DNA of 39,671 nt from Gemmatimonadota bacterium. GTDB taxonomy: Bacteria > Gemmatimonadota > Gemmatimonadetes > Longimicrobiales > RSA9. Shown here piece after piece: positions 1,588 through 38,793 of this stretch; position 1 is the first letter of the stretch, and each line of letters opens with the position of its first letter. A program made the translations under genes and the position numbers. The notes below the pieces were generated by a model that saw nothing but the letters and a program-made list of their open reading frames with translations, searched no databases and was not told the origin of the DNA. The stretch covers positions 1-39,671 of the forward strand of contig JAGTUV010000426.1 in assembly GCA_018224305.1 (NCBI GenBank). Reading direction: 5' to 3'.

Positions 1588-1742
1588 ATGTTCCCTCCAG
1601 GGACTACGATAACGGGTTAACAGCACTCCAGAGCCGCTAATGAGCAAGGTGCGGGCCACAAAGGCCATGAGGTGGGGCTGTCGCCGAGGATCGGGACCAT
1701 GGATAATGCACGCTGAAGGCACCCTGCGGAATCGGAGATCAT

Positions 1743-2453: not shown

Positions 2454-2477
2454 GCGCGACCGCACAGCTTTACGGAG

Positions 2478-4444: not shown

Positions 4445-4470
4445 CCCGGGTGCGGCACGGGACTTACGGC

Positions 4471-4809: not shown

Positions 4810-4855
4810 ATCCGTTCAGGCCATCGCCAGGCGCCGCGACCGCAGCCGTATCCCG

Positions 4856-12080: not shown

Positions 12081-12083
12081 ACC

Positions 12084-15570: not shown

Positions 15571-15812
15571 GTGTGCACCGTCGCGCTTTCACCGGCAGGC
15601 TCACCGGCTGCGGGCTCGAACTCCGCCGCATCGAGTCGGTTGAACACCTCGATGAAGCGCTCACGCTGCACGATAAACATGTCGAACCACTTCTCCTCGT
15701 CGTACGTGCTGAACGCATACACCTTCGCCAGGTCGTCATCGGGCGCGTTCAGGCTGCCGATGTGACGGAGCGGCTCACCACGCGACTTGCGTGCGAATAT
15801 CTCGTATATCAT
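15567..15812 (-). CDS. paaB: 1,2-phenylacetyl-CoA epoxidase subunit B-like (PaaB)
   Basis: 81 aa. MIYEIFARKSRGEPLRHIGSLNAPDDDLA..A...Y fits the small PaaB family. GAGGAG lies upstream of ATG 15812. Confidence 0.85.
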   Translation of the reverse strand: MIYEIFARKSRGEPLRHIGSLNAPDDDLAKVYAFSTYDEEKWFDMFIVQRERFIEVFNRLDAAEFEPAAGEPAGESATVHT

Positions 15813-15862
15813 GCAGCCCTCATCTCCTCAGCGGACAGCTTCGCGGTGACGGCGGCAACCGG

Positions 15863-16297
15863 TCAGGCCGCCACGCCGAAGCTCTTGAGCAGCGCGCGTG
15901 CGTGCGCGGTCATGTCATCGTTGTGCCACGGTGGATCCCATACGTCGAGTACAGTGACGCTGCCGACTCCGTCCTCCTGCATCAGCCGCTCGCGGATGTC
16001 GAGGATGATGAACTCCATGCACGGGCAGGCGCTGGCCGTGAACGTCACATCGACATGCACCGCGTCACCGTCGCGTCGCATGGCGCGGATCAGGCCGAGA
16101 TCGACGAGGCTGACCGGCAGCTCGGGATCGGCGACTTCGCAGAGTGCGCGCCACAGAACATCGACGTCCGGATCGTCAGAGCGGTAGCGCTCATCACGCG
16201 GCGAGTCCGAAGCACGCAGCTCGTGCGTGGTGCGCGTGGATGCATCCAGGACCGCTTTGTTGCGATGCTTCGCGCGAGCATCCTGCTCATGGTCCAT
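15863..16297 (-). CDS. DUF59 (metal-sulfur cluster assembly / PaaD N-terminal-domain-like) protein
   Basis: 144-aa product from ATG 16297, which lies after the paaA stop at 16327; the track ORF overextends to 16441. VADPELPVSLVDLGLI...V.VDVTFTASACPCMEFI is the DUF59 signature. There is no Zn ribbon at its C-terminus. Confidence 0.8.
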   Translation of the reverse strand: MDHEQDARAKHRNKAVLDASTRTTHELRASDSPRDERYRSDDPDVDVLWRALCEVADPELPVSLVDLGLIRAMRRDGDAVHVDVTFTASACPCMEFIILDIRERLMQEDGVGSVTVLDVWDPPWHNDDMTAHARALLKSFGVAA

Positions 16298-16326
16298 GGT
16301 GACCCCGTTGCCGGCCGGCTCGTGCT

Positions 16327-17274
16327 TCACGCTGCCTGGCCCATCAGCCGGTTCAGCGGGCCGTGACTGCGGCGCACGCTCTCGACATACTGCTCGTTCA
16401 TGGGGCCGCGCTTCTTCCAGCGCGCGAAGACCTGTTCCCACGGGATCTCGCCGCCCGTGAAGTCCCAGTGCTTGGCCTCGGCGTCGTACTCGCAGGGGAA
16501 CGGATAGTCGAGCACGTACTCGCCGCGCTGCTCGTCGAAGTGGGCGGGCACCTTCAGCCCCAGCGTCTCGCAGAGCGGTACGGTCGCCGACATCCAGGTC
16601 TGCCGCAGCTCGTCGTTCGTCATCCCCTTCAGCCGGTAATCGAGCTGGCCGCTGTGCCGCTTCATGGTGTCAGGCAGGCCGAACCATTCGATCGTCATCG
16701 GGAACATCCAGTCCACCGCGCGTTGCAGCTTCGCGCGCGCCGTGCCGCCCGCGCCGGCCAGCCGCTTCATCCACACTTCGCCGTGGCGCAGGTGGAACGT
16801 CTCCTCCAGGTCCACCTTGATCAGTGCGCGCTTGAGCGGTCCATAGGACGTGTTGCGGAAGACATCGCCCAGCAGCGTGATGCCCGCGCGGTCGAAGAAC
16901 CCGTTCGCGGTGACGAGCTCCGCCCACGACTCGAGCGGCTGATCGAAGCCGTACGGATGCTTGAACTCGTGGGGCTCGCGGCCGTAGACGAGCTGTTCCT
17001 TGTCCAACCCCATGTCCTCGAGGATGCGGTACGCGATGTTCGCGTGGGCCAGCTCATCCTGGATGATCGCGACGGCAGAGACCATTGTGTTCGTCGAGGG
17101 CGCGTCCTGCGCCGCCATCCAGTACGCCGGAGCGCTCATCAGCTCGGTGTCGGCCTGCACGAGAAGTTGAACGATGAGCGCCTTGCGATAGCCCTCCGTC
17201 ATCTCCTCCGGGGACTCGAGAAGGTAGCCTGCCTGGACCTTCTGCTTGATCTCGTCTTCGGTAAAACGGCTCAT
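16327..17274 (-). CDS. paaA: 1,2-phenylacetyl-CoA epoxidase catalytic subunit A-like (PaaA)
   Basis: 315-aa product from ATG 17274, with GGAG 6 nt upstream. Di-iron ligand blocks QDELAH and EETFHLRHG are present, as are TSYGPL and MTNDELRQ, which parallel E. coli PaaA. The 148-aa upstream extension in the track ORF is rejected. Confidence 0.9.
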   Translation of the reverse strand: MSRFTEDEIKQKVQAGYLLESPEEMTEGYRKALIVQLLVQADTELMSAPAYWMAAQDAPSTNTMVSAVAIIQDELAHANIAYRILEDMGLDKEQLVYGREPHEFKHPYGFDQPLESWAELVTANGFFDRAGITLLGDVFRNTSYGPLKRALIKVDLEETFHLRHGEVWMKRLAGAGGTARAKLQRAVDWMFPMTIEWFGLPDTMKRHSGQLDYRLKGMTNDELRQTWMSATVPLCETLGLKVPAHFDEQRGEYVLDYPFPCEYDAEAKHWDFTGGEIPWEQVFARWKKRGPMNEQYVESVRRSHGPLNRLMGQAA

Positions 17275-17368
17275 GTGAAGCTCCATTCGCGGGCTGTCGC
17301 CCGGTGATGACACCGGCAGACCCGTAAGGTGGCCGAACGGAGTGTGACCCGTCAAGGACCCGGCTGGT

Positions 17369-17384
17369 ACAGGGATTGCCCTGT
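17369..17384. promoter_or_regulatory. Candidate operator palindrome in the paaA / PBP divergent intergenic region
   Basis: ACAGGG-ATTG-CCCTGT, with perfect 6-bp arms and a 4-bp spacer. It lies 95 nt upstream of the paaA ATG and 75 nt upstream of ATG 17459. Confidence 0.3.
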
Positions 17385-17458
17385 TCATGCGCCGTAACAC
17401 GGGACTGTGGTGGAGGATCGGGGATCTGACGGTCCGGGGAACTTTCGAGGGATGAAGC

Positions 17459-20065
17459 ATGGATGAACACGAAGGCGGTCGAGGGCGCGGGCCGGGCGGA
17501 CGTGGCGACGACCACGTGCCGGACCAGCCCGGGGATGCGCGTGAACCCGGACCGGACCAGCCCGGGGATGCGCGTGCACCCGTACCTGACCAGCCGCGGG
17601 ATGCGCGTGCACCCGTACCTGACCAGCCTGCGGACGCGAGCGCTCGCGTGCCGAATGATCCGGCCGCTGGACGGCACCACAGTGGCGTGGTGAGTTCGGA
17701 GCCGGTCGAGCAACGCAAGCGGAAGCGCTATCCGAGAATCCGCCGGGCGGGGATCCTCGTGGGACTGGCCGCGCTGGTCATCATCCTCGGGATGGCCGTG
17801 CTGTGGGAGTTCTGCGGTGTGCGCGGCTGCCCGGATGTGGACATGCTGCGCGGGTATATGCCGGACCAGGCGTCTGTGGTGGTGGACCGCAACGGCGAGG
17901 AGATTTCGAAGCTGTTCGTAACGCGACGTGTCGTGGTGCCGGTCGACTCGATGCCGGAGCATCTGCTGAACGCGTTCGTTGCCATTGAGGACCGGCGGTT
18001 CTGGGATCATGGCGGAGTGGATTGGCGTCGCGTGCTCGGAGCGCTGGCGGCGAACGTGCGGGCGGGCGGGATCGAAGAGGGGTCGAGCACGATCACGATG
18101 CAGCTCGCGCGCAATGTCTTCCCGGAGCAGCTGCCGGCAAGCCAGCGCACGATCACGCGCAAGCTGGGCGAGTCGCGGGTGGCGCGGGAGATCGAGAAGC
18201 GATACAGCAAGCGCGACATCATGGAGCTGTACCTGAACCAGATCTACTTCGGCAGCGGCGCATACGGCATCGAGGCAGCGGCGGAAGAATACTTCGGCAA
18301 GAGTGCAGCGCAGCTGGATCTGGCGGAATCCGCGCTGCTCGCGGCGCTGCCGCGCGCGCCGTCGCGTCTGAATCCGCGGGCCAACGAGAGCGCGGCGCTC
18401 GAAGGTCGCTCGCTCGTGCTCCGGCGCATGGCCGCGCAGGGACACATCACGGAAGAAGAACGTGCGGCGGCAGCGGATGGTGAGCTGGAGCTGCGCGAGG
18501 GAAGCGTCGAGTCGGAAGACGAAGCGCCGTACTTCGTGGAGGCGGTGCGCCGTCAGCTGGAGGCAGACCTCGGCACGGCGATTTACACGCAGGGCTACAC
18601 CATTCACACCACGCTCGATCTCGAAGTGCAGCGCGCGGCGGAGGAGGAACTCGAGCAGGCGCTGCAGGGCATCGAGTCGGGGCGACATGGCGGGTTCCCG
18701 CACCGAACGTTTGCCAGCATACGCGGCGACACCACGCGGGACCGGGCAGAGAGCCCGGGGTACCTGCAGGGCGCGCTGGTGCTCATGGACCCGAATACCG
18801 GCGACGTGATCGCACTCATCGGCGGTCGCGACTTCGACGACTCGCAGTTCAACCGCGCCACGCAGGCCAAGCGGCAGCCGGGCAGCGCATTCAAGCCATT
18901 CGTCTACGCCGCCGCACTGAGCGCCGGCTACCCGGCATCACACCGGCTGCTCGACCAGCCGCTACGCTACATGCTCGACAACAACACCGCCTGGGAACCA
19001 CGCAACTATGACGGCACGTTTCGGGGCCCGGTCACGATGCGTCAGGCGCTGACCCAGTCGCGCAATGTGCCGACCGTGCGCCTTGCCAACGAGGTGGGAC
19101 TCAGCCGCGTGCTCGGCACTGCCGAGCAGTTCGGTCTGGGCCGAATGCAGTCCAATCCGGCGGTGGTGCTGGGCACGTCGGAGGTGACGCCGATCCAGCT
19201 GACGGCGGCGTACAGCGCGTTCGCGACGCTCGGTTCGCGGGCGGAGCCGCGCTTCGTCACGCGGGTGGAGGACACCGGCGGCGGGGTCGTATGGTCGCAA
19301 CAGCCGAACACGCGGCGGGTCATTGATCCGGGCGTCGCGTTCATTGCTACGAGCATGATGCAGGACGTCGTCAGTCGCGGCACCGGCACCGGCGTACGCG
19401 CGGCAGGATTCAGCGGACCAGCCGCGGGTAAGACGGGAACGACGCAGGACGCCGCGGACGTGTGGTTCGTCGGGTTCACGCCCACGATGGTGGGTACGAT
19501 CTGGGTCGGCTTCGATCGCCGTCAGCGCATCCTCCGCGGCGCGACGGGCGGCGAGATCGCCGCACCGATCTGGGGCCGCATCATGCGTCGGATCGGAGCC
19601 GAAAGCGGCGGCTGGTCACCACCGGCGGGCGTCGAGCAGCGCACGGTGGATGAGATGGGCAGTGTGGTATCGGCCGGGTGCGCACCGCAGGGTGCGACGT
19701 ATACCGAGTATTTCATCGGTGGCACGTCCGCGAGCGGCAACTGCTACCCGTCCGCCTACGCGTGGGACGACTCGCTCGGATACAGCGATGAGGACTGGCG
19801 CTACGAGCCGGCCGATTTTGACACGGCCGACGGCTGGTGGGAGCGCCTGCGTCAGCGTGTGCTCGGCGATGACGCCAACGTCCGCCGGGCGGGGGATCCA
19901 GCCGCGCGCGACAGCGTACCGCGGACCACCGACCCCGCGGTCGCACCTGTCCTTCCCGCAAGCCGGCCGGACACGGGCAGGCCGCCGCCGCTCGGCGAGC
20001 CCGTTCGTCGCGATCCGCCACCACCCCCGCCACCCGACACCACAGGGCTGACGGGCGACGGCTGA
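17459..20065 (+). CDS. Class A penicillin-binding protein (PBP1A family), paralog 2
   Basis: GT51 motifs AIEDRRFWDHGGVD and TITMQLARN; transpeptidase motifs GSAFKPF, SRN and KTGTT. ATG 17459 is preceded by GAGGGA, and the product begins MDE like paralog 1. GTG 17687 or 17690 are alternative starts that would exclude the repeat region. Confidence 0.9.
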   Translation: MDEHEGGRGRGPGGRGDDHVPDQPGDAREPGPDQPGDARAPVPDQPRDARAPVPDQPADASARVPNDPAAGRHHSGVVSSEPVEQRKRKRYPRIRRAGILVGLAALVIILGMAVLWEFCGVRGCPDVDMLRGYMPDQASVVVDRNGEEISKLFVTRRVVVPVDSMPEHLLNAFVAIEDRRFWDHGGVDWRRVLGALAANVRAGGIEEGSSTITMQLARNVFPEQLPASQRTITRKLGESRVAREIEKRYSKRDIMELYLNQIYFGSGAYGIEAAAEEYFGKSAAQLDLAESALLAALPRAPSRLNPRANESAALEGRSLVLRRMAAQGHITEEERAAAADGELELREGSVESEDEAPYFVEAVRRQLEADLGTAIYTQGYTIHTTLDLEVQRAAEEELEQALQGIESGRHGGFPHRTFASIRGDTTRDRAESPGYLQGALVLMDPNTGDVIALIGGRDFDDSQFNRATQAKRQPGSAFKPFVYAAALSAGYPASHRLLDQPLRYMLDNNTAWEPRNYDGTFRGPVTMRQALTQSRNVPTVRLANEVGLSRVLGTAEQFGLGRMQSNPAVVLGTSEVTPIQLTAAYSAFATLGSRAEPRFVTRVEDTGGGVVWSQQPNTRRVIDPGVAFIATSMMQDVVSRGTGTGVRAAGFSGPAAGKTGTTQDAADVWFVGFTPTMVGTIWVGFDRRQRILRGATGGEIAAPIWGRIMRRIGAESGGWSPPAGVEQRTVDEMGSVVSAGCAPQGATYTEYFIGGTSASGNCYPSAYAWDDSLGYSDEDWRYEPADFDTADGWWERLRQRVLGDDANVRRAGDPAARDSVPRTTDPAVAPVLPASRPDTGRPPPLGEPVRRDPPPPPPPDTTGLTGDG
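17519..17650 (+). repeat. Four tandem 33-bp repeats (plus a degenerate fifth)
   Basis: The units begin at 17519, 17552, 17585 and 17618. In the PBP frame they read PDQPGDAREPG / PDQPGDARAPV / PDQPRDARAPV / PDQPADASARV. Confidence 0.85.
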
Positions 20066-21560: not shown

Positions 21561-22460
21561 ATGAAGGCGTTCCTAGCCGCATTCGCCCTGGCCGTGGCTA
21601 TGCCCGCGGCGGCCGATGCGCAGCGCGATGTCACGCGTCGTTCCTATACGTTCCTCGAGGATCGGCTGGTCGTCGCCGTGCACGCCGAGGCGCCCGGAGA
21701 ACTCCACGTCGTGCGCGGCCAGCGCGGCCGGGTCGAGGTCGCCGCACGTTCCCGCGACGGCTTCGCCGGGTTCGGACTCGGCGGCGACTACACCCGTCAG
21801 CTGCGATTGACCGCCATCGGCTCCGAGGCCGTACAGTACCTCGTCGTCGTGCCCGAGCACGTCTCCGTCAGCGTCCAGCTACCCCGCGGTGGCTCCACCC
21901 TCGTGTCGGATCGCGACGGCGTCTCGACCTACCGCTGGGGCGACAGCCGGACGGCTGCGGGATACCGGGGCGGCAGCGACTTCCCTGCGCAGGACCGCGG
22001 CAGGTCGGACGACCGCCTTTCTGTCGAGGACGCCGACTGGCAGGCAGCATTCGACCGCGCTCCGATCGCCGCGACCACGGCCTCCGGACTCTACGTGGTC
22101 CACTCCGGCAGGGGCCGTATCCCGGCCCTCGTCGACGTGCCGGACCTGACCAGTATCCGTTCCCTCTCCATCCGCGTCGAGGGCGACGACTTCCGCATCG
22201 CCGCGACCCGGCCCCTCTCCCTCACGCCCGGGAGCGACGGACACATCGTGATCCGGGTCGACGGTCAGCCGCTGGATGTCGTGCTCTTCGTGCCGCGCGG
22301 CGGATCCGGCCTCCAGGTACAGTCCGGCGGCCGGCGCCTGGCGGACGTGATGGGTGGACGGCCGCGTTCCTATTGCGGAAGTACGGTAATCCAGCAGCCA
22401 ACCCCCCATCAGAACTGGCTGACGCTGTTCCCATCGCGCGGCGTGGAAGACTGCCGGTGA
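21561..22460 (+). CDS. Secreted hypothetical protein
   Basis: 299 aa; AGGAG lies 8 nt upstream of the ATG. The signal peptide is MKAFLAAFALAVAMPAAADA. The composition is beta-rich, and the competing frame (21554-22504) is Arg/Pro junk. Confidence 0.6.
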   Translation: MKAFLAAFALAVAMPAAADAQRDVTRRSYTFLEDRLVVAVHAEAPGELHVVRGQRGRVEVAARSRDGFAGFGLGGDYTRQLRLTAIGSEAVQYLVVVPEHVSVSVQLPRGGSTLVSDRDGVSTYRWGDSRTAAGYRGGSDFPAQDRGRSDDRLSVEDADWQAAFDRAPIAATTASGLYVVHSGRGRIPALVDVPDLTSIRSLSIRVEGDDFRIAATRPLSLTPGSDGHIVIRVDGQPLDVVLFVPRGGSGLQVQSGGRRLADVMGGRPRSYCGSTVIQQPTPHQNWLTLFPSRGVEDCR

Positions 22461-22578
22461 AGCGCGTGGTATGCGCCGATGAGCCGCGGGATAATCTTGC
22501 GTAAATCGTTGATATACATTAGTTTACAGAGTATTTAACGGCCATTGGAAAGCAGGAAAATCGGATCGTCCGAAACTC

Positions 22579-22607
22579 TTGAGAATGAGGCTCGAATGCC
22601 TTAGATT
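22579..22607 (+). promoter_or_regulatory. Candidate sigma70-type promoter upstream of the ECF sigma gene
   Basis: TTGAGA (22579-22584), a 17-nt spacer, then TAGATT (22602-22607), inside an AT-rich island. This is pattern matching only. Confidence 0.3.
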
Positions 22608-22740
22608 CAGGAGTGTGGTATACAATCGTGGGGAAACGGGTGTCGGCGGGGAATACTGCACGAAATTGTGTACATCAAGAGGACGGGGCGCCCACGGTTC
22701 TGCCGCGGACCCCGTCTTTCGCTTGCGGAAAGGAGCACCC

Positions 22741-23340
22741 TTGGCGATTGCGGTAAAGAGCATATCGGAACTGAGCGATAACGCGCTGGTCGCTGCGCAT
22801 CTGGAAGGACATCCGGGTGCATTCGCGGAGTTGTACGATCGCTACCACGACCGTCTGGTGCACTTCATCGCACGCAAGACGGGGGATCGCGACCGCGCTG
22901 AGGATCTGGTACAGGAGGCGTTCATCCGTGTGACGCGACACCTGCACCGTTTCGATGCGAACAAGAAGTTCTCGACGTGGATCTACACGATCTGCTCGAA
23001 TCTGTCGAAGAACGAGCTGCGCAACCGTTCGCGGAGTCCGCTGGTGCTGTTCCAGAAGCTGACGACGCACTGGGACCCGGAGCATCGCCCGCTGCAGTTC
23101 GAGGACGCGGGAGCGCGACCGGACGATCAGTACCGGAAGCGTTACCTGGAAGAGATAGTGGAGCAGACGGTGGAGGAGCTGCCGGCGCATCACAAGCTGG
23201 TGTTCCGTCTGCGCGAGCTGGAAGGCAAGAGCTACGAGGAGATCGCGGAGATTACCGGGGTGAACCTCGGAACGGTGAAGAGCCGGCTGCATCGTGCACG
23301 CACGAGTTTCGCGGAGCGGATCGAGCCACTGCTCAACTAA
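22741..23340 (+). CDS. ECF-type RNA polymerase sigma-70 family factor
   Basis: Start assigned to TTG 22741, with AAGGAG 5 nt upstream, giving 199 aa. Region 2 is DLVQEAFIRVTRHLHRFD..KFSTWIYTICSNL. Region 4 is LPAHHKLVFRLRELEGKSYEEIAEITGVNLGTVKSRLHRAR. Confidence 0.85.
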   Translation: MAIAVKSISELSDNALVAAHLEGHPGAFAELYDRYHDRLVHFIARKTGDRDRAEDLVQEAFIRVTRHLHRFDANKKFSTWIYTICSNLSKNELRNRSRSPLVLFQKLTTHWDPEHRPLQFEDAGARPDDQYRKRYLEEIVEQTVEELPAHHKLVFRLRELEGKSYEEIAEITGVNLGTVKSRLHRARTSFAERIEPLLN

Positions 23341-23479
23341 CTTGCCAGCGGCGCGCATCCGCTCTCTCGGTGCTCACGTTGCTTTGAAGACAGTCCACTA
23401 GTCGTCATCATTCGATGGTAGCGAAGGGCCGTTCCGCACTGAAGCGCGGGGCGGCCCTTCCGTCGTAGGGGTCCGCGGT

Positions 23480-25087
23480 TCACCATGCGTGCGAGGCGGT
23501 CGCCATGCCGACGGCGAGGGCGAACGTGGCGTAGCGGTGCAGTCCGGAGAATGGGAAGTCGGGGTGCCAGTGGTCGCCCGCCTGGTGGTAGCGATCCCAG
23601 CGGCGGCGCAGCGCATCGCGTTCGTCCGTCGTGGTGTTCTCCCAGCGGTCGCCGGGGATGATGAAGATGGACGGGACGCCGCGCTGGAGGAACGGCCAGT
23701 AGTCGGAGTTGGGCGATGCGGCGGACAGTGCTGCGCTCCAGCCGTGCTGCTCAGCGATGCTGGCGGCGAGCGTGCCCAGCGGGACGCCTTCGCCGCCGGC
23801 GATGCGCCAGTTGAGCGGCGGCGCGGGCGGAGCTCCGGCATCGAGATTGATGAGCGCGGCGATGCGATCGAGCGGCAGCGGTGATGCGGACGCCATGTAC
23901 GCCGAGCCCAGCAGGCCGCGCTCCTCGCCCGTGAAGAACAGGAACGCGACGGACCGCGCCGGCGGAGCTTCGCGCATCGCTTCGGCGATCGCGAGCAGCA
24001 TGGCAACGCCGGCCGCATTATCGGAGAAGCCGTTGTAGATCGAATCGCCGGCGGCGTCGGGTGTGCTGATGCCGAGGTGATCGTAATGAGCGGTATAGAC
24101 GACGAACTCATCGCGGAGCTCCGGATCGCTGCCGGGCAGCGCGGCTCCGATGTTGGCGGCGAATACGGTTGCGATGTCTGCGCGGATCGTGGCTGTGATG
24201 ACGCGCCCGAGATCCGCACCCGGCCCCTCTTCGCCCTGCCCAATGGCCGGCGGCACGTCGCCGTCCGCCAGCAGTGCTTCCGTCATGACAGGTCCGGCGA
24301 TCAGCACGGGCAGCGTCGGCTGCCATACCGGATCATCGACCGGTGCGTCGACGAAGTAGCGCGTGTCGCCGCGACTTCTCACGTACAGGTCGTACTGTGC
24401 AGTGTCCGGCACGAGCACCACGACGCCGGTAACGCCCGCTTCGACGAGAGCCGGGACCAGCTCGACGGCGCTGCCGCCGAGCGGACCGAGGAACACCGCT
24501 ACTCCCCCCGCCGGCACCGCCGGAGCGCGCGCCCCGGCATGCACCGCCTGGCCGAGGAAGAACGCGCGTCCCTCGAAGTCGCGAAACGCCCCCGCACCCC
24601 CGGTGTTCACGATGAAGTCGTGCGTGTTGCGGAAGGTGCGGGTGCCGGTGCGCGCGGCTATGGTGACCTGTGTGGCGTCATCGATGCGCGCGCGGCGGAG
24701 CGGCATCGGCAGCATGAACGAGCGGTCATCGCTCAGCGGCTCGAGACCCAGCCGCTCGAGCTGGCTCACGATGTACGCAGCGGCCAGCCGCTCGCCCTCG
24801 GTGCCCGTGCCGCGGCCGGCCAGCATGTCATCAGCGAGGAACCGCGTGTGTGCACGGATGGCGAGCGAATCGATTCCGGCCCCGTTCGCTCCGGCCCCTG
24901 CCGCACGCGCACGCTGCGGAGCCGTGACCTGTGCGCAGGCAGCGCGCGCTTCGGTCACGAGCAGCGAACCGGCGAGCAGCAGAGGTACGCACAGCGAGCG
25001 AACGCGCACCGGACGTCCGGCTGTACGTCGGCGCGGGCTCTCCGCACAACCGGCGACGAGAGTCAGGTGCAGGAGGTGCATCATCAC
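23480..25087 (-). CDS. M28 family aminopeptidase with protease-associated-like insert (secreted)
   Basis: Has a signal peptide. M28 blocks are AHYDHLG, FSDNAAGVAMLLAIAE, FLFFTGEERGLLGS and YHQAGDH. The exact start lies among GTG/ATG/ATG at 25087-25079. Confidence 0.85.
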   Translation of the reverse strand: MMMHLLHLTLVAGCAESPRRRTAGRPVRVRSLCVPLLLAGSLLVTEARAACAQVTAPQRARAAGAGANGAGIDSLAIRAHTRFLADDMLAGRGTGTEGERLAAAYIVSQLERLGLEPLSDDRSFMLPMPLRRARIDDATQVTIAARTGTRTFRNTHDFIVNTGGAGAFRDFEGRAFFLGQAVHAGARAPAVPAGGVAVFLGPLGGSAVELVPALVEAGVTGVVVLVPDTAQYDLYVRSRGDTRYFVDAPVDDPVWQPTLPVLIAGPVMTEALLADGDVPPAIGQGEEGPGADLGRVITATIRADIATVFAANIGAALPGSDPELRDEFVVYTAHYDHLGISTPDAAGDSIYNGFSDNAAGVAMLLAIAEAMREAPPARSVAFLFFTGEERGLLGSAYMASASPLPLDRIAALINLDAGAPPAPPLNWRIAGGEGVPLGTLAASIAEQHGWSAALSAASPNSDYWPFLQRGVPSIFIIPGDRWENTTTDERDALRRRWDRYHQAGDHWHPDFPFSGLHRYATFALAVGMATASHAW

Positions 25088-26908: not shown

Positions 26909-27424
26909 ATGACGAGAGCTGCAACTGGAGATGCGAAGACGGACCGGATCGGCGTGCTGTTCGTATGTCTCGGCAACATCTGCCGGTCACCGCTGGCCGA
27001 GGGCGTGTTCCGTGACGTAGCGGATGCGGAAGGCCTCGCGGGTCGATTCGACATCGATTCGGCGGGCACGTCGGACTACCACACGGGTGATCCGCCCGAT
27101 CCGCGGACGGTGGGTGAAGCGAAACGCCGGGGTCTGGTGCTGGAGCATTCGGCCCGGCAGATCCGTGTAGAGGACTTCGCACGATTCGATTATGTAATCG
27201 CCATGGACGCGAGCAATCTCGGCAAGATCGAACGGCTGGCGAAATCGATGTCCCATGATGCGGAGCTGCATCTGTTGCGTGCGTTCGATGGCGATGCGGG
27301 CGATGACCTGGAGGTACCGGACCCGTACTTCGGCGGGCCGGACGGGTTTTCGGACGTACACGACATGGTGGAGCGGTCATGCAGGACGCTGCTGGAACAC
27401 ATCCGCTCGCACCACGCGCTGTGA
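26909..27424 (+). CDS. Low-molecular-weight protein-tyrosine phosphatase
   Basis: VLFVCLGNICRSPLAEG is the CX5R(S) P-loop, and the DPYFG Asp loop is present. ATG 26909 is used; GTG 26954 is an alternative. The long N-terminal extension of the track ORF (from 26000) is antisense to the lipoprotein gene and is rejected. Confidence 0.9.
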   Translation: MTRAATGDAKTDRIGVLFVCLGNICRSPLAEGVFRDVADAEGLAGRFDIDSAGTSDYHTGDPPDPRTVGEAKRRGLVLEHSARQIRVEDFARFDYVIAMDASNLGKIERLAKSMSHDAELHLLRAFDGDAGDDLEVPDPYFGGPDGFSDVHDMVERSCRTLLEHIRSHHAL

Positions 27425-28293
27425 CGCTCCCAGACGAGATTCGCACTGACATCGAGCACGACCTCGGTGTCCGGATCGAGAGGGTGGACGGAGTCGGCGG
27501 CGGCTGCATCAGCCCGGCGTACCGGCTACGGTGCGCTGATGGCGTGAGCATATTTCTGAAGACCGCGCCGCCAAGTGCACCGGATGACATGCTGGCGCAG
27601 GAGGCGGTGTCGCTCGAGCGTATCGCGGCAACGGATACGGTGCGGGTGCCGCGGGTGCTGGCACGACCGGGTACATGGCTGGCCCTGGAGTGGCTGGAGC
27701 CTGCGCGCGGCAGCGATGCGGGGTGGGCCGTGCTCGGCGCTGAACTGGCACGCATGCACCGAAGCAGTGCGGAACAGTACGGTTGGGAGTCGCCGAACTT
27801 TATCGGCCCCCTGCCGCAAGCGAACGAACGGTCGCACGACTGGCCGTCGTTCTGGGGCGCTCAGCGGCTGCGCCCTCAGCTGCGGCAGGCGCGTGATCGG
27901 TTGGGCGGCGAGGCCATTGAGCGTTTCGAGCAACTGCTCGAGGAACTGGACGAGAGGCTGTCAGCGGCCGTGCCGGACGGAGCCTCGCTGCTGCACGGCG
28001 ACCTGTGGGCGGGCAACGTTCATTTCACTGCAGGCGGCGTCGCGGTCATCGATCCATCCAGTTACTACGGCCATCGCGAAGTCGATCTCGCGATGGCCGC
28101 GTTGTTCGGTGGATTTCCGCCGGCGTTCTTCGACGCATACTCGGCGGAGTGGCCGCTGCACGAGGGTGCGGACGCGCGTCGCGGCATCTACCAGCTGTAT
28201 TACCTGCTCGTGCACGTCAATCTGTTCGGCGGCGGGTACGTCGCGCAGACAGGCGGCGTTCTCGCATCGGTGCTCTCCCGTCGTCCCGACTGA
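27421..28293 (+). CDS. Fructosamine/ketosamine-3-kinase family protein
   Basis: LLHGDLWAGNV and IDPSSYYGHREVDLAM are the family's catalytic blocks. GTG 27421 overlaps the PTP stop (GTGA). The track start at 27379 is an alternative. Confidence 0.85.
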   Translation: MTLPDEIRTDIEHDLGVRIERVDGVGGGCISPAYRLRCADGVSIFLKTAPPSAPDDMLAQEAVSLERIAATDTVRVPRVLARPGTWLALEWLEPARGSDAGWAVLGAELARMHRSSAEQYGWESPNFIGPLPQANERSHDWPSFWGAQRLRPQLRQARDRLGGEAIERFEQLLEELDERLSAAVPDGASLLHGDLWAGNVHFTAGGVAVIDPSSYYGHREVDLAMAALFGGFPPAFFDAYSAEWPLHEGADARRGIYQLYYLLVHVNLFGGGYVAQTGGVLASVLSRRPD

Positions 28294-28310
28294 GTGGCCT
28301 GCGGCGGCGC

Positions 28311-29039
28311 TCAGGTCGAGGGCGGGCCGAAGCCGAGGACGCCCATGATAATGCCAGGCACCGCGAAAATGATCCATACGACGGCCGCGATGACCGCTGC
28401 GCGCGCCATACTGACCTTGTAGATCACGCTGAGACCGATCGCCCACAGGGCCGCCTGCCAGATCGCGAAGATGTCGAGGCGCTGGAGGATGGCAACGAGC
28501 GTCTTGTCCATGTCGGGGCTGCCGATGAAGCGGAGCGGACCGAACGACATGCTCCGGATCATGTCGAAGCCGGCTTCACCGGCGACGATGACGAGTACGC
28601 TCGCGAGGATCTGCGAGAGCAGAAGCACGAAGGACGCGTACGTCGCGATGAGCATGGTGCGCGAGAAGTCAGTCCGGATATCGGCGATGCGGCCGCCGAG
28701 CCACAGCAGTGCTGCGGCCGCGGCGGTCATCAGCAGGTACATGATCGGGACACCGATGACACCGAAGTATGTCATCATGCTGACCATCCCCTCCGGCATC
28801 TGCGCCTGCTGCTCGGGCGGGATGGAGCCGCGAACGACGATGCGGTTGGCCGGGATCATGATCAGGTAGAACAGGATCCCGAGCGCGAGCAGCGTGAGCA
28901 GCGGCGGCGCGACTTTGTCGTGCGCGCGGCGGCGGAAAAGCTCGAACGGCGAGAAGTAGACGTCGATGTAATCTTCCCAGCGCGAAGCCGTTGCTGTCGG
29001 CTCCTGGCCGGCCTGCGTCGTCACGTCATCGTGATCCAT
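28311..29039 (-). CDS. Yip1-family integral membrane protein
   Basis: 242 aa. After a soluble N-terminus (WEDYIDVYFSPFELF) it has five or so hydrophobic helices, an architecture typical of YIP1-domain proteins. The family call has moderate confidence. Confidence 0.65.
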   Translation of the reverse strand: MDHDDVTTQAGQEPTATASRWEDYIDVYFSPFELFRRRAHDKVAPPLLTLLALGILFYLIMIPANRIVVRGSIPPEQQAQMPEGMVSMMTYFGVIGVPIMYLLMTAAAAALLWLGGRIADIRTDFSRTMLIATYASFVLLLSQILASVLVIVAGEAGFDMIRSMSFGPLRFIGSPDMDKTLVAILQRLDIFAIWQAALWAIGLSVIYKVSMARAAVIAAVVWIIFAVPGIIMGVLGFGPPST

Positions 29040-33633: not shown

Positions 33634-34950
33634 ATGGGACCAATGGACGCGACCCGCGGCTCGCTGCGCGACCGCGAGCTGGACGTCGCTCGCGAGATAG
33701 CGAATGCCTTCCTCACGGCGGGCTCGCCCGTCGAGGTCTATCGCCTCGCGCTCGCGCGCGTGACGCCCCTCGTGCGCGCCAGCTTCAGCTCCGTTTTCGA
33801 GCGCGATCCCGACGACCCCGCACTGCTCAAGCTGACCTGTGCAAACAACTGGCCGCAGGCGTCCGCACGCTACCTGGGTCAGCTGCGGCTGCGGGTCGGC
33901 CGTGGCCCCACCGGCGGAGCGGTCGCGCGGATGGAACCGGTCGAGGTGGAGGACGTGTTCGCCGATCCGCGGCTCCGGGAATGGCACGAGCCTGCCCGCG
34001 AGCTGGGGTTCGTATCCCTCATATCCCTGCCGCTCGCGACCGGCGACCGGGCGACGGGCGCGCTGACGTTCTACTTCGATGAGCCTCACCCGTTCGATGA
34101 GGACGAGCGTCACCTGCTGAAGCTGATCGCCGATCAGCTTGCGGTGGCGAGTGCCCGCGTGGCCGCGCTCCAGGCGGAACGCGGGGAGCTGGAGGTACTG
34201 CGCACCGAGAACGCGATCCTGCGCCAGCGACTCGGTGCGAACGCCGACGCGAAGCGACTGAGCGACGAGTTCCTGGCCAACATCAGTCACGAGCTGCGTA
34301 CGCCTCTCACATCGATCCTCGGCTACGCCAGCCTGCTGGCGGAAGGTCAGGCCGGCACGCTGCCGGACGCACAACGCAACACGGTGCTCCGGATCGAGCG
34401 ATCTGCCAATGTGCTGCTCCACCTCATCAACGACCTACTGGCGCTCTCGCAGGTCAAGCTCGGTCGCGCAGCGGTCACCATAGCGCCCGACGATGCCGTC
34501 CACCTCGCCCGCCTGGCACTCGACTCCGCGGGCACTGCGCAACCGGGCGTGCGTGTCACGCTCGAGGCCGATACCGATCGCATACCGATCATGACCGATG
34601 GCGAGAAGGTCGGGAAGATCCTCGAGAACCTTCTCAGCAACGCGTACAAGTTCACGGAGCGCGGAAGCGTGACGCTGACCGTTCGTGACACGACGGAGGA
34701 CGGCGTGCCCGCCGTGGAGTGGATCGTCGAGGACACGGGGATCGGCATCGCGAAGGGGCAGCTGGAAGCGATCTTCGATGAGTTCCGGCAGGTCGACGGT
34801 TCCTCGACGCGCCTGTACGGGGGCACCGGCCTCGGCCTGGCGCTGTGCCGCGCGCTCGCGCGACTGCTCGGCGGCCGGATCACGGTCCGAAGCGAGGAGG
34901 GGAAGGGTTCCCGGTTCCGGGTGGTGGTGCCGGGGACCGTTCAGGGCTGA
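33634..34950 (+). CDS. Cytoplasmic GAF-domain sensor histidine kinase
   Basis: Start at ATG 33634; the upstream part of the track ORF is Arg/Thr-rich noise. It has an N-terminal GAF-like domain. The H-box is NISHELRTPLTSILGY, the N-box LLSNAYKFT, G1 DTGIGI and G2 GTGLGLALCRAL. There is no TM segment and no adjacent response regulator. Confidence 0.85.
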   Translation: MGPMDATRGSLRDRELDVAREIANAFLTAGSPVEVYRLALARVTPLVRASFSSVFERDPDDPALLKLTCANNWPQASARYLGQLRLRVGRGPTGGAVARMEPVEVEDVFADPRLREWHEPARELGFVSLISLPLATGDRATGALTFYFDEPHPFDEDERHLLKLIADQLAVASARVAALQAERGELEVLRTENAILRQRLGANADAKRLSDEFLANISHELRTPLTSILGYASLLAEGQAGTLPDAQRNTVLRIERSANVLLHLINDLLALSQVKLGRAAVTIAPDDAVHLARLALDSAGTAQPGVRVTLEADTDRIPIMTDGEKVGKILENLLSNAYKFTERGSVTLTVRDTTEDGVPAVEWIVEDTGIGIAKGQLEAIFDEFRQVDGSSTRLYGGTGLGLALCRALARLLGGRITVRSEEGKGSRFRVVVPGTVQG

Positions 34951-36848
34951 GAAACGCCCGATCCGGGCGGCTCTCCGGTCCTCCCCCTCGGCATGATACG
35001 CGGCTTCGTCATCGCGGCGGGCGACAGGATCTCATCCAGTTCCGCTTTGCTCATCCACTCCTTCTCGAGCACCAGTTCGTAGACGCCGCGGTCGGTGTCG
35101 AGCGCCTCGCGTGCGACGGCGGTGGCGCGGTCATAGCCGATGTAGGGCACGAGTGCGGTGACGATGCCGATGCTGCGCTCGAGCATGGCGCGGATGTGGT
35201 CGCGGTCCGCGGTGATGCCGACGATGCAGCGCTCGCGCAGCACGATGACGGCCTGGGTGAGCATATCGACGGACTGGAAGATGTTGAACGCGATGACGGG
35301 CTCCATCACGTTCAGCTGCAACTGGCCGGCTTCGGCGGCCATCGTCACGACTACATCGTTGCCGATCACCTGGAAGCACACCTGGTTGACGACCTCCGGT
35401 ATGACCGGATTGACCTTGCCGGGCATGATGCTCGAGCCCGGCTGCATTGGGGGGAGCCGGAGCTCGGCAATGCCTGCGCGCGGTCCGCTCGAGAGCAGGC
35501 GCAGGTCATTGCAGATCTTCGAGAGCTTGACCGCGACGCGCTTGAGCAGGCCGGACAGCATGACGAATACGCCGGTGTCCTGGGTCGCTTCGACGAGGTC
35601 GGGCGAGGTGACGAGGTCCAGGCCGGTGATCTCGCTCAGGTGCGTGCGCACGAGGCCGGCATAGCGGGGATCGGCGTTGATGCCGGTGCCAATGGCGGTC
35701 GCGCCCATGTTGATCTCATGCAGGTGCACTACCATCTCGCGCAGCCGGTCGATGTCCTCGCCGATCGTCACGCCATAGGCATGGAACTCCTGACCGAGCG
35801 TCATCGGCACCGCATCCTGGAGCTGTGTGCGACCCATCTTCACGATGTCCGAGAACTCCTGGCCCTTGAGCAGGAACTCATCGCGGAGGGCGGCGAGTGC
35901 CTGGCTCAGGTCGCGCAGGCCCCAGCTCGCGGCGATGCGCAGCGACGTTGGATAGACATCGTTCGTGGACTGCGACAGGTTCACATGGTTGTTCGGATGC
36001 AGCACGTCGTACGAGCCGCGCGGCTGACCGAGCAGCTCGAGCGCACGGTTCGCGATGACCTCGTTCGCGTTCATGTTCGTCGATGTGCCGGCACCGCCCT
36101 GGATGACATCGACGACGAACTGGTTGTGCAGGTTGCCATCGCGGATCTCGCGGCACGCGCGAATGATCGCGTCCGCGTGGTCGTCCGCGAGCAGACCCAG
36201 GTCGCGGTTCGATTCCGCCGCCGCTTCCTTCACGGCGGCGAGCGCGCGGATGAGGTGCGCGAACTGCGCGATCGGGATACCCGTGATCGGGAAATTCTCA
36301 ACCGCCCGCTGCGTCTGGATGCCGTAGTAGTTGGCGGCCAGGACCTCGCGCTCGCCCAGCAGGTCCTTCTCGCGCCGGACCTCGCCCGAGATGTACGACT
36401 CACCGCGTCCGGTCGCGCGTCCCGATGGCGAACTGAGACGCTCCGCGATCATGCGCGCGGCTGCCGACAGCAGCCGACGGTACAGGTCCGGCCGTTCCTC
36501 CGCGATGTGCGCGAACGCATCGCGCGGTATCTCCAGTACCTCGGCTGATTCAGTGACGAGTGCGGACGTGGAGTGCGGGTAGTCGTCCAGCAGGCTGCCC
36601 TCGCCGAACGAATCGCCGGGACCCATCACGTGGATCACGAGCGGCCGGCCGCGCGGTCCCTTGAGCAGCGAGACGCGACCCTTCAGCAGCATGCCCCAGA
36701 ACCGGCGCGGCTGGCTCTCGTGGAAGATGTACGTGTCGCGCAGATAACCAATGGTGCGCGCGTGGCCGGCGAGATGGTCGAGGTCGTCGGCGGAGAGCTC
36801 GCGCGCGAGTGGATGTGCGCGCAGCATGCGGAGGATGCTGGTATCCAT
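34941..36848 (-). CDS. aspA: Aspartate ammonia-lyase fused to an N-terminal CAP-type cyclic-nucleotide-binding domain
   Basis: 635-aa product from ATG 36848. Residues ~158-635 align by eye along the whole of E. coli AspA: GGAGTSTNMNANEV, MGRTQLQDAVPMTLGQEF, GSSIMPGKVNPVIPE. Residues ~1-137 have the cNMP-binding barrel pattern (IFHESQP...GDSFGEGSLL...ALVTESAEVLEIPRDAF). In the 49 codons upstream of 36848, third positions are only ~59% G/C by hand count, so they are treated as non-coding. Confidence 0.9.
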   Translation of the reverse strand: MDTSILRMLRAHPLARELSADDLDHLAGHARTIGYLRDTYIFHESQPRRFWGMLLKGRVSLLKGPRGRPLVIHVMGPGDSFGEGSLLDDYPHSTSALVTESAEVLEIPRDAFAHIAEERPDLYRRLLSAAARMIAERLSSPSGRATGRGESYISGEVRREKDLLGEREVLAANYYGIQTQRAVENFPITGIPIAQFAHLIRALAAVKEAAAESNRDLGLLADDHADAIIRACREIRDGNLHNQFVVDVIQGGAGTSTNMNANEVIANRALELLGQPRGSYDVLHPNNHVNLSQSTNDVYPTSLRIAASWGLRDLSQALAALRDEFLLKGQEFSDIVKMGRTQLQDAVPMTLGQEFHAYGVTIGEDIDRLREMVVHLHEINMGATAIGTGINADPRYAGLVRTHLSEITGLDLVTSPDLVEATQDTGVFVMLSGLLKRVAVKLSKICNDLRLLSSGPRAGIAELRLPPMQPGSSIMPGKVNPVIPEVVNQVCFQVIGNDVVVTMAAEAGQLQLNVMEPVIAFNIFQSVDMLTQAVIVLRERCIVGITADRDHIRAMLERSIGIVTALVPYIGYDRATAVAREALDTDRGVYELVLEKEWMSKAELDEILSPAAMTKPRIMPRGRTGEPPGSGVSQP

Positions 36849-36933
36849 GTCGTCGGGACGAATGAGAGGAACGTCGGTGACGGCCGGAAGGTAAGCGGAC
36901 GATGCAGGCGAGGGAATGGACGTGCGAACCTTT

Positions 36934-36963
36934 TTGTGGCGTGCGGTAACCGAACGATATAAC
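36934..36963 (+). promoter_or_regulatory. Candidate sigma70-type promoter for the POT transporter gene
   Basis: TTGTGG (36934-36939), an 18-nt spacer, then TATAAC (36958-36963), about 70 nt upstream of ATG 37036 in a locally AT-richer gap. This is pattern matching only. Confidence 0.3.
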
Positions 36964-37035
36964 TTGGCCCGTCCCCGATCGTGACGCACAGGCACGCCGC
37001 GGCGTCAACCGGATACGACCACAGCACAGGCGGAT

Positions 37036-38793
37036 ATGGCGAACGACGACTCCCTGCCTCGTGACCCGCAGGCCGCAACCGTCGCGGCCGACGAGGCGCC
37101 TCCCGGCCTCGCCACCATGAAGGGTCAGCCCACGTTCCTCGGTCATCCACGAGGCCTCTCGACCCTGTTCTTCACCGAGATGTGGGAGCGCTTCAGTTAC
37201 TACGGGATGCGTGCACTGCTCATCCTCTTCATGACGGCAGCAGTGACGGGCGACAATCCCGGTCTCGGTTTCGGCGAGGCGACCGCGGGTGCGGTGTACG
37301 GCCTGTACACGTCGATGGTGTATCTCTTCACATTGCCCGGCGGCTGGATTGCCGACAATCTGTGGGGCCAGCGGCGGGCGGTGTTCGTCGGCGGCATCAT
37401 TATCGCCCTCGGCCACTTCACCATGGCCGGCCCGCTCGTCGGCCTGCCGGACCTGCCGACGTTCTATCTGGGCCTGCTGTTCATCGTGCTGGGTACGGGG
37501 CTGCTCAAGCCGAACGTCAGCACGATGGTCGGGGACCTCTACCCGGATCCGACCGCACTGTCCGACGAGCGCGAGCGCGAGGAGTGGGGCGCCAAGCGGG
37601 ATGCGGCGTTCTCGATCTTCTACATGGGCATCAACATCGGCGCGATGCTCGGCCCGTTCATCTGCAGCACGCTCGGCGAGAAGGTGAACTGGCACTGGGG
37701 CTTCTCGGCCGCCGGATTCGGCATGGTGCTGGGCCTCATCCAGTACAAGATGGGCGACCGCTATCTCGGTGAGGCGGGCTATCTCCAGACCACCGACACG
37801 CTGGATGTCGTCGCGCGGCGCAGCCGCAACTTCTTCATGGGCGCGGCCGGGGTAGGTGCCGTGTCGGCGCTGGTCGTTTTCCTGCTCGTGACCGGTGCGC
37901 TCGGGATGACGCTCGAAGCGTTCGCGACGTGGATCGGCTACGGCATTCTGCTGCTGTCGATCCTGTTCTTCACGTGGCTGATCTTCAATGCGCTGTGGGC
38001 GGCGGGGCTGTTCACGCTGTTCGCCATCATTGCCGGCGTGCTGACGCCGGACATGGGGACGACGGGAGGGCAGTGGGCGATTCTCGCGACACTCGGCGTG
38101 TTCATTCTGATGAACATCGGCCTGCTCGCGTCCCGCGGGGCGGCGGTCAGCGTCGAGAAGAAGCGCCTCATGGTGATCTTCTGGCTGTTCCTCCTGGCGG
38201 CGATCTTCTGGTCCGGCTTCGAGCAGGCGGGCTCGTCCATGAACCTGTTCGCGCAGGACCTGACGGACCGCACGGTGTTCGGCTGGGAGATGCCGGCGGG
38301 GTACCTGCAGAACGTGAATCCGTTCTTCATCATCGTGCTGGCACCGGTGTTCGGCGTGCTCTGGACGTGGCTTGCCAGCCGGGACAGGAACCCGTCGATC
38401 CCCATGAAGTTCGGGCTCGCGCTGCTCGGCCTGGCGGCCGGCATGTTCGTGCTGTCGTGGGGCGCGGCGTACGCGTCGGCAACCGACCGCGTGTCGATGG
38501 CGTGGCTGGTGGTCACCTACTTCCTGTTCACGGTCGGAGAACTTGCGCTGTCGCCCGTCGGTCTGTCTTCCATGACCAAGCTGGCACCTCCGGGACGTCT
38601 GGGTCAGATGATGGGCGTATGGTTCATCGCCGCGGCGCTGGGCAACCTGTTCGCCGGACTGGTGGCGGGGAGCCTGGAGACGCTGGCGCCCTCGGCGCTC
38701 TTCCGGATGGTCGCGCTGTTCACCGCGGCCGCGGGGATCGTCGCGCTGCTGGCGAGCCCGTGGGTGAAGCGGCTGACGCACGGCGTGAAGTAG
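37036..38793 (+). CDS. Proton-dependent oligopeptide transporter (POT/PTR2 family, DtpT-like)
   Basis: 585 aa. GHPRGLSTLFFTEMWERFSYYGMRALLILFM contains the ExxERFxYY signature, and FYMGINIGAMLGP is present. It has about 14 hydrophobic helices. Confidence 0.9.
   Translation: MANDDSLPRDPQAATVAADEAPPGLATMKGQPTFLGHPRGLSTLFFTEMWERFSYYGMRALLILFMTAAVTGDNPGLGFGEATAGAVYGLYTSMVYLFTLPGGWIADNLWGQRRAVFVGGIIIALGHFTMAGPLVGLPDLPTFYLGLLFIVLGTGLLKPNVSTMVGDLYPDPTALSDEREREEWGAKRDAAFSIFYMGINIGAMLGPFICSTLGEKVNWHWGFSAAGFGMVLGLIQYKMGDRYLGEAGYLQTTDTLDVVARRSRNFFMGAAGVGAVSALVVFLLVTGALGMTLEAFATWIGYGILLLSILFFTWLIFNALWAAGLFTLFAIIAGVLTPDMGTTGGQWAILATLGVFILMNIGLLASRGAAVSVEKKRLMVIFWLFLLAAIFWSGFEQAGSSMNLFAQDLTDRTVFGWEMPAGYLQNVNPFFIIVLAPVFGVLWTWLASRDRNPSIPMKFGLALLGLAAGMFVLSWGAAYASATDRVSMAWLVVTYFLFTVGELALSPVGLSSMTKLAPPGRLGQMMGVWFIAAALGNLFAGLVAGSLETLAPSALFRMVALFTAAAGIVALLASPWVKRLTHGVK

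Follow-up and report, generated by a model that had tools for sequence, protein, structure and literature searches.

A CNB-aspartase fusion gene in the window

Positions 1 to 39,671 of contig JAGTUV010000426.1, from assembly GCA_018224305.1 of a Gemmatimonadota bacterium (Longimicrobiales), were analysed and are referred to here as the window (39.7 kb, 61–73% G+C per kb). The reverse strand carries a gene in which a cyclic-nucleotide-binding domain (hereafter, CNB domain) is joined to the N-terminus of a complete aspartate ammonia-lyase (aspartase, AspA), the enzyme that joins amino-acid catabolism to the tricarboxylic acid cycle and to ammonium supply. A first-pass annotation had proposed such a fusion, and the profile search indeed finds cNMP_binding, Lyase_1 and FumaraseC_C in one frame of the 635 amino acid product. 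The parts of the gene are as follows.

34941..36848, minus strand: whole CNB-AspA fusion gene, 635 amino acids with the stop codon at 34941-34943 (open reading frame, three Pfam domains in one frame)
36435..36848, minus strand: CNB (CAP/CRP-type effector) domain, residues 1-138, with N-terminal helices, beta-barrel, alpha-B and alpha-C (Pfam, AlphaFold2, Foldseek, dN/dS)
36381..36434, minus strand: inter-domain linker, residues 139-156, a variable Ser/Gly/Arg stretch followed by Y152-x-S154-G155 (pLDDT <50 at 139-155)
34944..36380, minus strand: aspartate ammonia-lyase core, residues 157-635, with Lyase_1 (nt 35361-36356), FumaraseC_C (nt 35004-35165) and a variable C-terminal tail (Pfam, NCBIfam, structure matches)
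35406..35438, minus strand: catalytic SS-loop signature GSSIMPGKVNP, residues 471-481 (direct translation; invariant in 49 family members)

The interval 34941..36995 on the minus strand is a single open frame of 684 amino acids counted from a GTG, and no stop codon lies between the CNB and AspA parts within it. The ATG at 36848 yields the 635 amino acid product, with N-terminus MDTSILRM, on which all residues are numbered here (position in the 684 amino acid frame minus 49). Twenty-four of 27 aligned homologues start with MD or ME at the column of this ATG and the remaining 3 differ, while the 49 residues between the GTG at 36995 and the ATG are without counterpart in the same 27 sequences. 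The start chosen in the first-pass annotation is therefore retained, and because the column is shared by 24/27 homologues it is favoured both over the upstream GTG and over the NCBI call for the same contig (P0001, 628 amino acids), which starts 7 codons inward at MLRAHPL.

The cNMP_binding family (PF00027) matches residues 35–117 (nt 36498-36746) with E=7e-16 and 58.4 bits versus a gathering score of 27.5, covering profile positions 4–87 of 89. A profile of the family aligns with the structures of PKG, PKA and Mycobacterium tuberculosis (Mtb) CRP/GlxR with E-values of 1e-26 to 1e-15. The AlphaFold2 model of the CNB part alone (pLDDT 82.7) has the strand and helix order expected for a CNB beta-barrel with B and C helices, and is closest to apo GlxR, Mtb CRP and the CNB domains of PKG (Foldseek probability 1.00, TMq ~0.7). 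The assignment of the N-terminal ~137 residues to a CNB/CAP effector domain thus stands, and the best sequence and fold matches (PKG, PKA, Mtb CRP, GlxR) suggest that this part descends from true cNMP binders. The NCBIfam matches to CRP and FtrB are weak (23 bits versus cut-offs of 211–266) and confined to the effector part, and the alignment to E. coli CRP stops at the C-helix. No helix-turn-helix family was found in the fusion protein with Pfam, the C-helix being followed instead by the linker and AspA; lacking this element, the protein is not a CRP/FNR transcription factor.

In the aspartase core, Lyase_1 (PF00206) spans residues 165–496 (E=2.7e-96, 323 bits versus a gathering score of 27) and FumaraseC_C (PF10415) residues 562–615 (E=4.5e-21, 75.5 bits versus 32.5). 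The NCBIfam aspartate ammonia-lyase model NF008909 (PRK12273) scores 745.5 bits with a cut-off of 510, and TIGR00839 (aspA) 677.7 bits, slightly below its equivalog cut-off of 681.2. The class II fumarase model FumC (TIGR00979) reaches only 472 bits with a cut-off of 664.75. The closest structures include AspA from Elizabethkingia (PDB code: 6wng; E=4e-167, 58% identity) and from E. coli (1jsw; E=2e-153, 55% identity), and the full-length AlphaFold2 model superposes on AspA structures with Foldseek TMt values of 0.89–0.93. The AspA signature motifs GGAGTSTNMNANEV, SQSTND, GRTQLQDAVPMT and GSSIMPGKVNP are all found in the core, and the active-site motifs TSTNMNANE, SQSTND, GRTQLQDAVPMT and GSSIMPGKVNP are invariant in 49 family members. 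The RxExDLLG motif after the linker corresponds to the usual N-terminus of free-standing AspA. Judged from these motifs and profiles the core is complete and intact-looking for catalysis, in agreement with the first-pass annotation, which had placed an entire AspA with GSSIMPGKVNP in the same polypeptide.

The fusion was followed through two homologue searches, for each of which the best 120 protein clusters were considered (240 together). Those of the first search show 72–100% identity with lengths of 607–655 amino acids, all contain PF00027, PF00206 and PF10415, and the named clusters are from Gemmatimonadetes, Gemmatimonadota or Longimicrobiales. The second, seeded with the homologue at locus L071, added 120 clusters, again with all three domains, whose names include Kapabacteria, Ignavibacteriales and Bacteroidota, and a third search returned an additional fused clade from Gemmatimonadaceae. 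A profile of the N-terminal 163 residues, run against GTDB species represented by one genome each, located the fusion-specific N-terminal part at 75 loci. In tblastn with the 635 amino acid protein the match continues into AspA wherever the sequence is long enough, and at most loci a single frame spans both parts. Gemmatimonadota is the label of about 66 of the 75, and a few carry no taxon label; the remainder are metagenome-assembled genomes (MAGs) labelled Hyphomicrobiales, Vicinamibacterales, Ignavibacteria, Kapaibacterium, Fibrobacteraceae and Desulfobulbaceae. The fusion also occurs in complete genomes, for example OW818654, OY969570, OY970192 and OY970303.

The first-pass annotation had raised the prospect that the architecture was common and already characterised. 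It is common, yet a literature search joining aspartase and cyclic-nucleotide-binding found no paper on the CNB-AspA architecture, and the databases name the fused proteins plainly as "aspartate ammonia-lyase". The fusion is widespread and uncharacterised, and belongs to a kind already known, the CNB-regulated enzymes, so that it is not categorically new. What is unusual within that kind is a central metabolic lyase as the output and an invariant atypical pocket.

Several features of the public records were noted in passing. Gene calls for family members often start too far downstream, as does P0001 from this contig; P0391 (Kapabacteria) is a 485 amino acid call from which the CNB domain has been dropped entirely, and P0493, P0491, P0503 and P0473 (Gemmatimonadaceae) are calls of 549–574 amino acids beginning inside the CNB beta-barrel (for example MAFLISGSVLIEK...). 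In-frame CNB sequence is present upstream in relatives, from which the short calls are best read as start-choice artefacts; as a result, database domain architectures under-report the fusion. Five of the 75 loci (L028, L032, L038, L067 and L079) are frameshifted or fragmentary, with one or two frameshifts each, several of them being from long-read MFD MAGs; L079 appears heavily degraded. Either the breaks are indels from sequencing or the loci are genuine pseudogenes. MAG DASVDG01 (Longimicrobiales SMAG_U2027) contains two distinct full-length CNB-AspA genes on separate contigs (L016 and L025), both with ~73% identity to the window protein, pointing to fused paralogues within a genome or to a mixing of genomes in the bin.

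The shorter annotated products and the five frameshifted loci are what could be cited for an artefactual origin of the fusion, in which two genes would have been joined by faulty assembly, by an overlooked stop or frameshift or by a wrongly chosen start, or translation would begin at the AspA core. Against this, the same continuous frame recurs in assemblies made independently in many studies and covering many phyla, there is no inter-domain stop, the N-terminus MDTxILR is conserved, and the CNB codons are under purifying selection (below). Such an origin is extremely improbable, and is effectively refuted; chance is excluded as well.

Conserved residues of the pocket

The elements of the CNB domain that concern ligand recognition are located as follows.

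36561..36608, minus strand: remodelled phosphate-binding cassette FGEGSLLDDYPHSTSA, residues 81-96, with the His92 codon at 36573-36575 (translation; HMMER alignment)
36705..36707, minus strand: Arg48 codon, in the beta2-beta3 loop (HESQPRRF) (family alignment, HMMER versus PKG)
36435..36491, minus strand: C-helix, residues 120-138, with the Arg137 codon at 36438-36440 (helix 120-138/139 in both AlphaFold2 models)

In canonical CNB domains the Arg of the phosphate-binding cassette neutralises the cyclic phosphate, and the Glu at the position of Glu83 binds the ribose 2'-OH. The window protein departs from the canonical cassette pattern Gly-Glu ... Arg-[Ser/Thr]-Ala: Gly82-Glu83 is present, and the position of the Arg is occupied by His92. 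HMMER pairs the cassette consensus fGegslLddyPhstsa with FGERALLYDEPRTASI of PKG, which places His92 on the canonical phosphate-binding Arg. Conservation of the candidate pocket residues was tallied over 361 fused proteins from three clades aligned to the family profile; for the Gemmatimonadaceae type, sequences with a gap at the column are left out of the denominator.

His92: Longimicrobiales type 119/120; Ignavibacteria type 120/120; Gemmatimonadaceae type 100/100; total 339/340
Glu83: Longimicrobiales type 120/120; Ignavibacteria type 120/120; Gemmatimonadaceae type 100/100; total 340/340
Arg48: Longimicrobiales type 120/120; Ignavibacteria type 120/120; Gemmatimonadaceae type 68/68; total 308/308
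Arg137: Longimicrobiales type 113/120; Ignavibacteria type 120/120; Gemmatimonadaceae type 118/118; total 351/358

The first-pass annotation had described the conserved Arg as missing. The canonical Arg is indeed lost, but it is not simply absent, being replaced by a near-invariant His. His92 is followed by Ser in two of the clades and by Gly in that of the Gemmatimonadaceae. A search of a representative library with the 163-residue N-terminal part gave 9416 CNB matches, of which the family's top matches were all contig-end fragments; these fragments, from further clades, carry the variants PHT, PHG and one SESAF...PHG, with the His kept in all. Separately, the 217 amino acid protein P0318 has a His-type CNB domain (HEGSPREH...GEGLLLDDQPHTTSA) followed by a short C-terminal region that is not AspA (…VYVFGDRFEGYSSGAAWEDTKLG…), and by its sequence the His-type pocket may occur in at least one other architecture.

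Arg48 is aligned by HMMER to a Gly in the beta2-beta3 loop of PKG, a position that we take to adjoin Asp170 of PKA RI-alpha, the partner of the cassette residue Arg209. This alignment suggests a relocation of the Arg that neutralises the phosphate, out of the cassette and into the neighbouring loop. The register of Arg137 depends on the alignment: without gaps from the conserved Pro it falls on CRP Thr127, and with MAFFT, which introduces a 4-residue gap, on CRP Arg123. The two CRP residues are one turn apart on the same face of the C-helix, and Arg137 probably faces the pocket under either register.

Selection on the domain was assessed with dN/dS (Nei-Gojobori, 12 orthologues), giving 0.06–0.35 for the CNB part and 0.06–0.21 for the AspA core, with mean pairwise identities of 58% and 81%, respectively. 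On these values purifying selection acts on the CNB domain, somewhat less strictly than on the AspA core. The selection and the residue tally both bear on whether the domain could be a ligand-free structural module, acting in oligomerisation (for example by CRP-like C-helix dimerisation that stabilises or bridges AspA tetramers) or in docking to a partner such as a transporter. The lost canonical Arg, the long C-helix like that of dimeric CRP-family proteins and the faster evolution of the CNB part relative to the core would fit such a module, as would the reported interaction of E. coli AspA with the transporters DcuA and DcuB (10.1101/2021.03.01.433382). The residues conserved over the three deep clades are, however, those of the pocket (Glu83, His92, Arg48, Arg137) and not a surface patch, purifying selection on the domain is clear, and a degenerate pocket would be unlikely to keep an invariant His and Glu. 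A ligand-free role appears improbable on these grounds, and the pure protein-interaction module that the first-pass annotation had held in reserve is argued against by the same four residues.

If a ligand is bound, it may, with modest probability, be the canonical second messenger, with 3',5'-cAMP or cGMP held as in CRP and PKA, His92 and/or Arg48 on the phosphate, and cAMP activating the aspartase under carbon limitation. All of the nearest sequence and structure relatives are true cNMP binders, the Gly-Glu of the cassette is kept, as is the Ser after the His in two clades, and Arg48 lies in the loop that in PKA abuts the cassette Arg. Transcription of E. coli aspA is under CRP-cAMP control, which such a sensor would parallel, and the mycobacterial acetyltransferase MtPat (see the comparison below) provides a precedent. 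Set against this are the His for Arg in 339/340 members, the Gly for Ser/Thr in the Gemmatimonadaceae clade and the lack of a cyclase gene nearby in the window. In characterised CNB domains, moreover, losing the cassette Arg abolishes or retargets binding (PMC10959531). With the Arg lost throughout, and in the Gemmatimonadaceae clade the Ser/Thr lost too, classical binding of cAMP or cGMP is doubtful.

With a similarly modest probability, the domain may have been re-specified for a nucleoside or nucleotide (AMP, IMP, GMP), or for a dicarboxylate or amino acid (2-oxoglutarate, fumarate, aspartate), held by Arg48, His92 and Arg137. Two invariant Arg and one invariant His line the predicted pocket, from which the canonical Arg is gone. 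Effector domains of the CRP family also bind non-nucleotides, as in NtcA, whose effector domain binds 2-oxoglutarate with an Arg of the C-helix taking part. The invariant Glu83, which in canonical domains contacts the ribose 2'-OH, favours a ribose ligand over a dicarboxylate. In the CNB domains of trypanosome PKA regulatory subunits, replacement of precisely the cassette Arg and Ala leads to nucleoside binding (PMC10959531), and E. coli AspA is linked to nitrogen status through GlnB (10.1101/2021.03.01.433382). Given the Arg-to-His change and this retargeting precedent, cAMP is not to be assumed as the ligand. We put forward only tentatively that the His-type CNB domain might represent a new ligand-specificity class, sensing a metabolite other than a cyclic nucleotide (a nucleotide or nucleoside of the purine type, or a dicarboxylate of carbon/nitrogen status such as 2-oxoglutarate) and gating a central enzyme of nitrogen and carbon metabolism.

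Linker, proposed regulation and gene neighbourhood

The linker sequence, RLSSPSGRATGRGESYISGE, was located at 36381-36440 by direct translation. It is the least conserved of the three regions (52% mean pairwise identity), although Y152, S154 and G155 are conserved. The Ser/Gly/Arg linker of ~20 residues proposed in the first-pass annotation is present, but its truly variable part is shorter, ~13–17 residues within 139–155, as conservation sets in again at Y152-x-S154-G155 and continues in the RxExDLLG after it. The full-length AlphaFold2 model, based on a 49-sequence alignment (mean pLDDT 79.8, pTM 0.69), consists of a folded CNB domain (1–138), a disordered segment (139–155, pLDDT <50) and a confident AspA core. 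All Foldseek matches of the full-length model are aspartases and fumarases and extend over ~465 columns, which means that no solved structure has the CNB-AspA architecture.

Taken as a whole, the arrangement of a CNB sensor joined by a flexible linker to a complete aspartase is probably that of a ligand-gated allosteric regulator, a reading that we hold with moderate confidence. The pocket would bind a small anionic ligand, most likely of nucleotide type (cAMP or cGMP held by the relocated Arg and the His, or a non-cyclic nucleotide or nucleoside), with a dicarboxylate such as 2-oxoglutarate as the main alternative. A ribose-containing nucleotide is favoured because of the apparent descent from true cNMP binders and the retention of Glu83. 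Binding would shift the C-helix and linker and so alter aspartase activity. The most probable form of this mechanism follows the example of MtPat: the CNB domain would dock on AspA, an obligate tetramer in which active sites are shared, and inhibit it until the ligand releases the docking. The fusion could then serve as a post-translational counterpart of the control of E. coli aspA transcription by CRP-cAMP, and a metabolic signal would act directly on the deamination of aspartate, which the uptake of peptides and amino acids would supply.

Several observations weigh against ligand-gated regulation. The full-length model contains no confident CNB-AspA interface (linker pLDDT <50, pTM 0.69), which leaves the geometry of autoinhibition unsupported. 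The cassette Arg is absent, and the Gemmatimonadaceae clade has in addition Gly for Ser/Thr. No nucleotide cyclase, phosphodiesterase or other signalling partner was found among the ~29 window open reading frames scanned, and among the loci compared no gene neighbour is conserved across phyla.

Two features lie upstream of the fusion gene.

36849..37035, no strand: divergent intergenic region of 187 bp shared with the POT transporter gene (no sigma-70-like promoter, no Rfam match)
37036..38793, plus strand: POT/PTR2 peptide transporter, divergent neighbour (PF00854, E=2.5e-57)

A partial OPT transporter is also close to the fusion gene, so that both transporters named in the first-pass annotation were recovered. 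At its 3' end the fusion gene overlaps a convergent gene for a GAF-HisKA-HATPase histidine kinase (plus strand, end at 34950) by 10 bp (34941-34950). In the relative L003 the same convergent pair overlaps by 38 bp (11862-11899). Around the fusion gene no sigma-70-like promoter, Rfam RNA or tRNA was found, and the lone terminator-like site falls inside the open reading frame, at chance level. The window also codes for M28 and M20 peptidases and a class I/II aminotransferase, and this content fits peptide and amino-acid catabolism.

A conserved neighbourhood was considered as a clue to the ligand or a partner and was rejected, as the synteny of the POT, GAF-kinase and HU genes is seen only among close Longimicrobiales relatives. 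The POT neighbour is present in L003, and is found neither in L001 nor in the other phyla, and three loci of the second clade (Ignavibacteria/Kapabacteria-type) have unrelated neighbours, one of them an amino-acid permease. With synteny confined to close relatives, the neighbourhood says little on the ligand.

Elsewhere in the window, two open reading frames of the PaaA/PaaC family (phenylacetate-CoA oxygenase-like) lie on the minus strand within 14755-17727 (14755-15588 and 16327-17727). They are flanked by two genes for class A penicillin-binding proteins (12081-14540 and 17456-20065), the second Paa frame, taken from stop to stop, overlapping the beginning of a penicillin-binding protein frame. 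The stretches 1215-4856, 22460-23480 and 26986-28311 contain no open reading frame with the strong GC3 codon bias of the contig; their local G+C is somewhat reduced (0.615–0.67) and they give no tRNA or Rfam matches. Open reading frames of 150–517 amino acids occur in 1200-4900.

Relation to known aspartases and CNB proteins

Model bacteria control aspartase at the promoter, through CRP-cAMP and others. They also control it by PII in trans (10.1101/2021.03.01.433382). A sensor fused to the aspartase would, if the proposed regulation is correct, constitute a direct and fast allosteric switch, kept across Gemmatimonadota and in several further environmental lineages, most of them uncultured. Should the ligand be other than a cyclic nucleotide, Gemmatimonadota, Ignavibacteriota and allied bacteria of soils and sediments would possess an unrecognised, phylum-wide layer of control that acts post-translationally on amino-acid catabolism. 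Because the proteins are plainly named and the sensor domain is sometimes clipped by gene callers, such a layer is invisible in metabolic reconstructions from MAGs. The Arg-to-His change together with the two family-specific arginines would also make the family a clean test case for the re-specification of CNB domains, after the nucleoside-binding PKA of trypanosomes.

With respect to the catalytic part, the closest known systems are AspA and AspB from E. coli (1JSW), Bacillus sp. YM55-1 (1J3U/3R6V) and Elizabethkingia (6WNG). Residues 157–620 form the full AspA core, 50–58% identical to these enzymes with TM values of 0.89–0.93. The solved or characterised aspartases are of ~470 amino acids without an N-terminal sensor domain, whereas the window protein has one. 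The known control of E. coli AspA is exerted at transcription by CRP or in trans by GlnB, and involves no fused sensor. Post-translational regulation of the E. coli enzyme, by stimulation through GlnB, has been described (10.1101/2021.03.01.433382).

The best mechanistic analogue is provided by the mycobacterial enzymes MtPat and MsPat (Rv0998 and MSMEG_5458), with which the fusion has in common the layout of an N-terminal CNB domain, a linker and a C-terminal enzyme. In these proteins cAMP on the N-terminal CNB domain relieves autoinhibition of the fused C-terminal acetyltransferase, and E. coli controls its own pat gene via CRP-cAMP instead (PMC8556138). The parallel extends to the division between lineages, in that E. 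coli relies on promoter control by CRP-cAMP, while in another lineage sensor and enzyme are fused. The output of MtPat is a GNAT acetyltransferase, reported to bind cAMP and to be activated by it, whereas that of the window family is a lyase, with His at the Arg position of the sensor. The geometry of coupling must also differ given the AspA tetramer, and autoinhibition is proposed here by analogy only.

The sensor itself most resembles the effector domains of the CRP/FNR family (E. coli CRP, M. tuberculosis CRP and C. glutamicum GlxR), with the best structure matches to 4byy, 3d0s, 4a2u and 4cyd (TMq 0.66–0.72), strong profile matches, and a common beta-barrel and long C-helix. CRP/FNR proteins carry the helix-turn-helix after the C-helix, where the window protein carries AspA. 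The equivalent of CRP Arg82 is His in the window family, and the pocket-side Arg of the C-helix lies at CRP Arg123 or Thr127 according to the register.

Natural replacement of the cassette Arg within a CNB fold is also seen in the regulatory CNB domains of trypanosomatid PKA, where the Arg and Ala of the cassette are replaced and specificity has shifted to nucleosides (PMC10959531). The substitutions there are Arg to Thr or Asn and Ala to Glu, whereas in the window family Arg is replaced by His and the Ala position holds Ser, Ala, Leu or Ile, with no Glu. The two are unrelated in both protein and lineage. Even so, the trypanosome precedent indicates that a CNB domain with its cassette Arg substituted need not be dead and can instead have acquired a new ligand.

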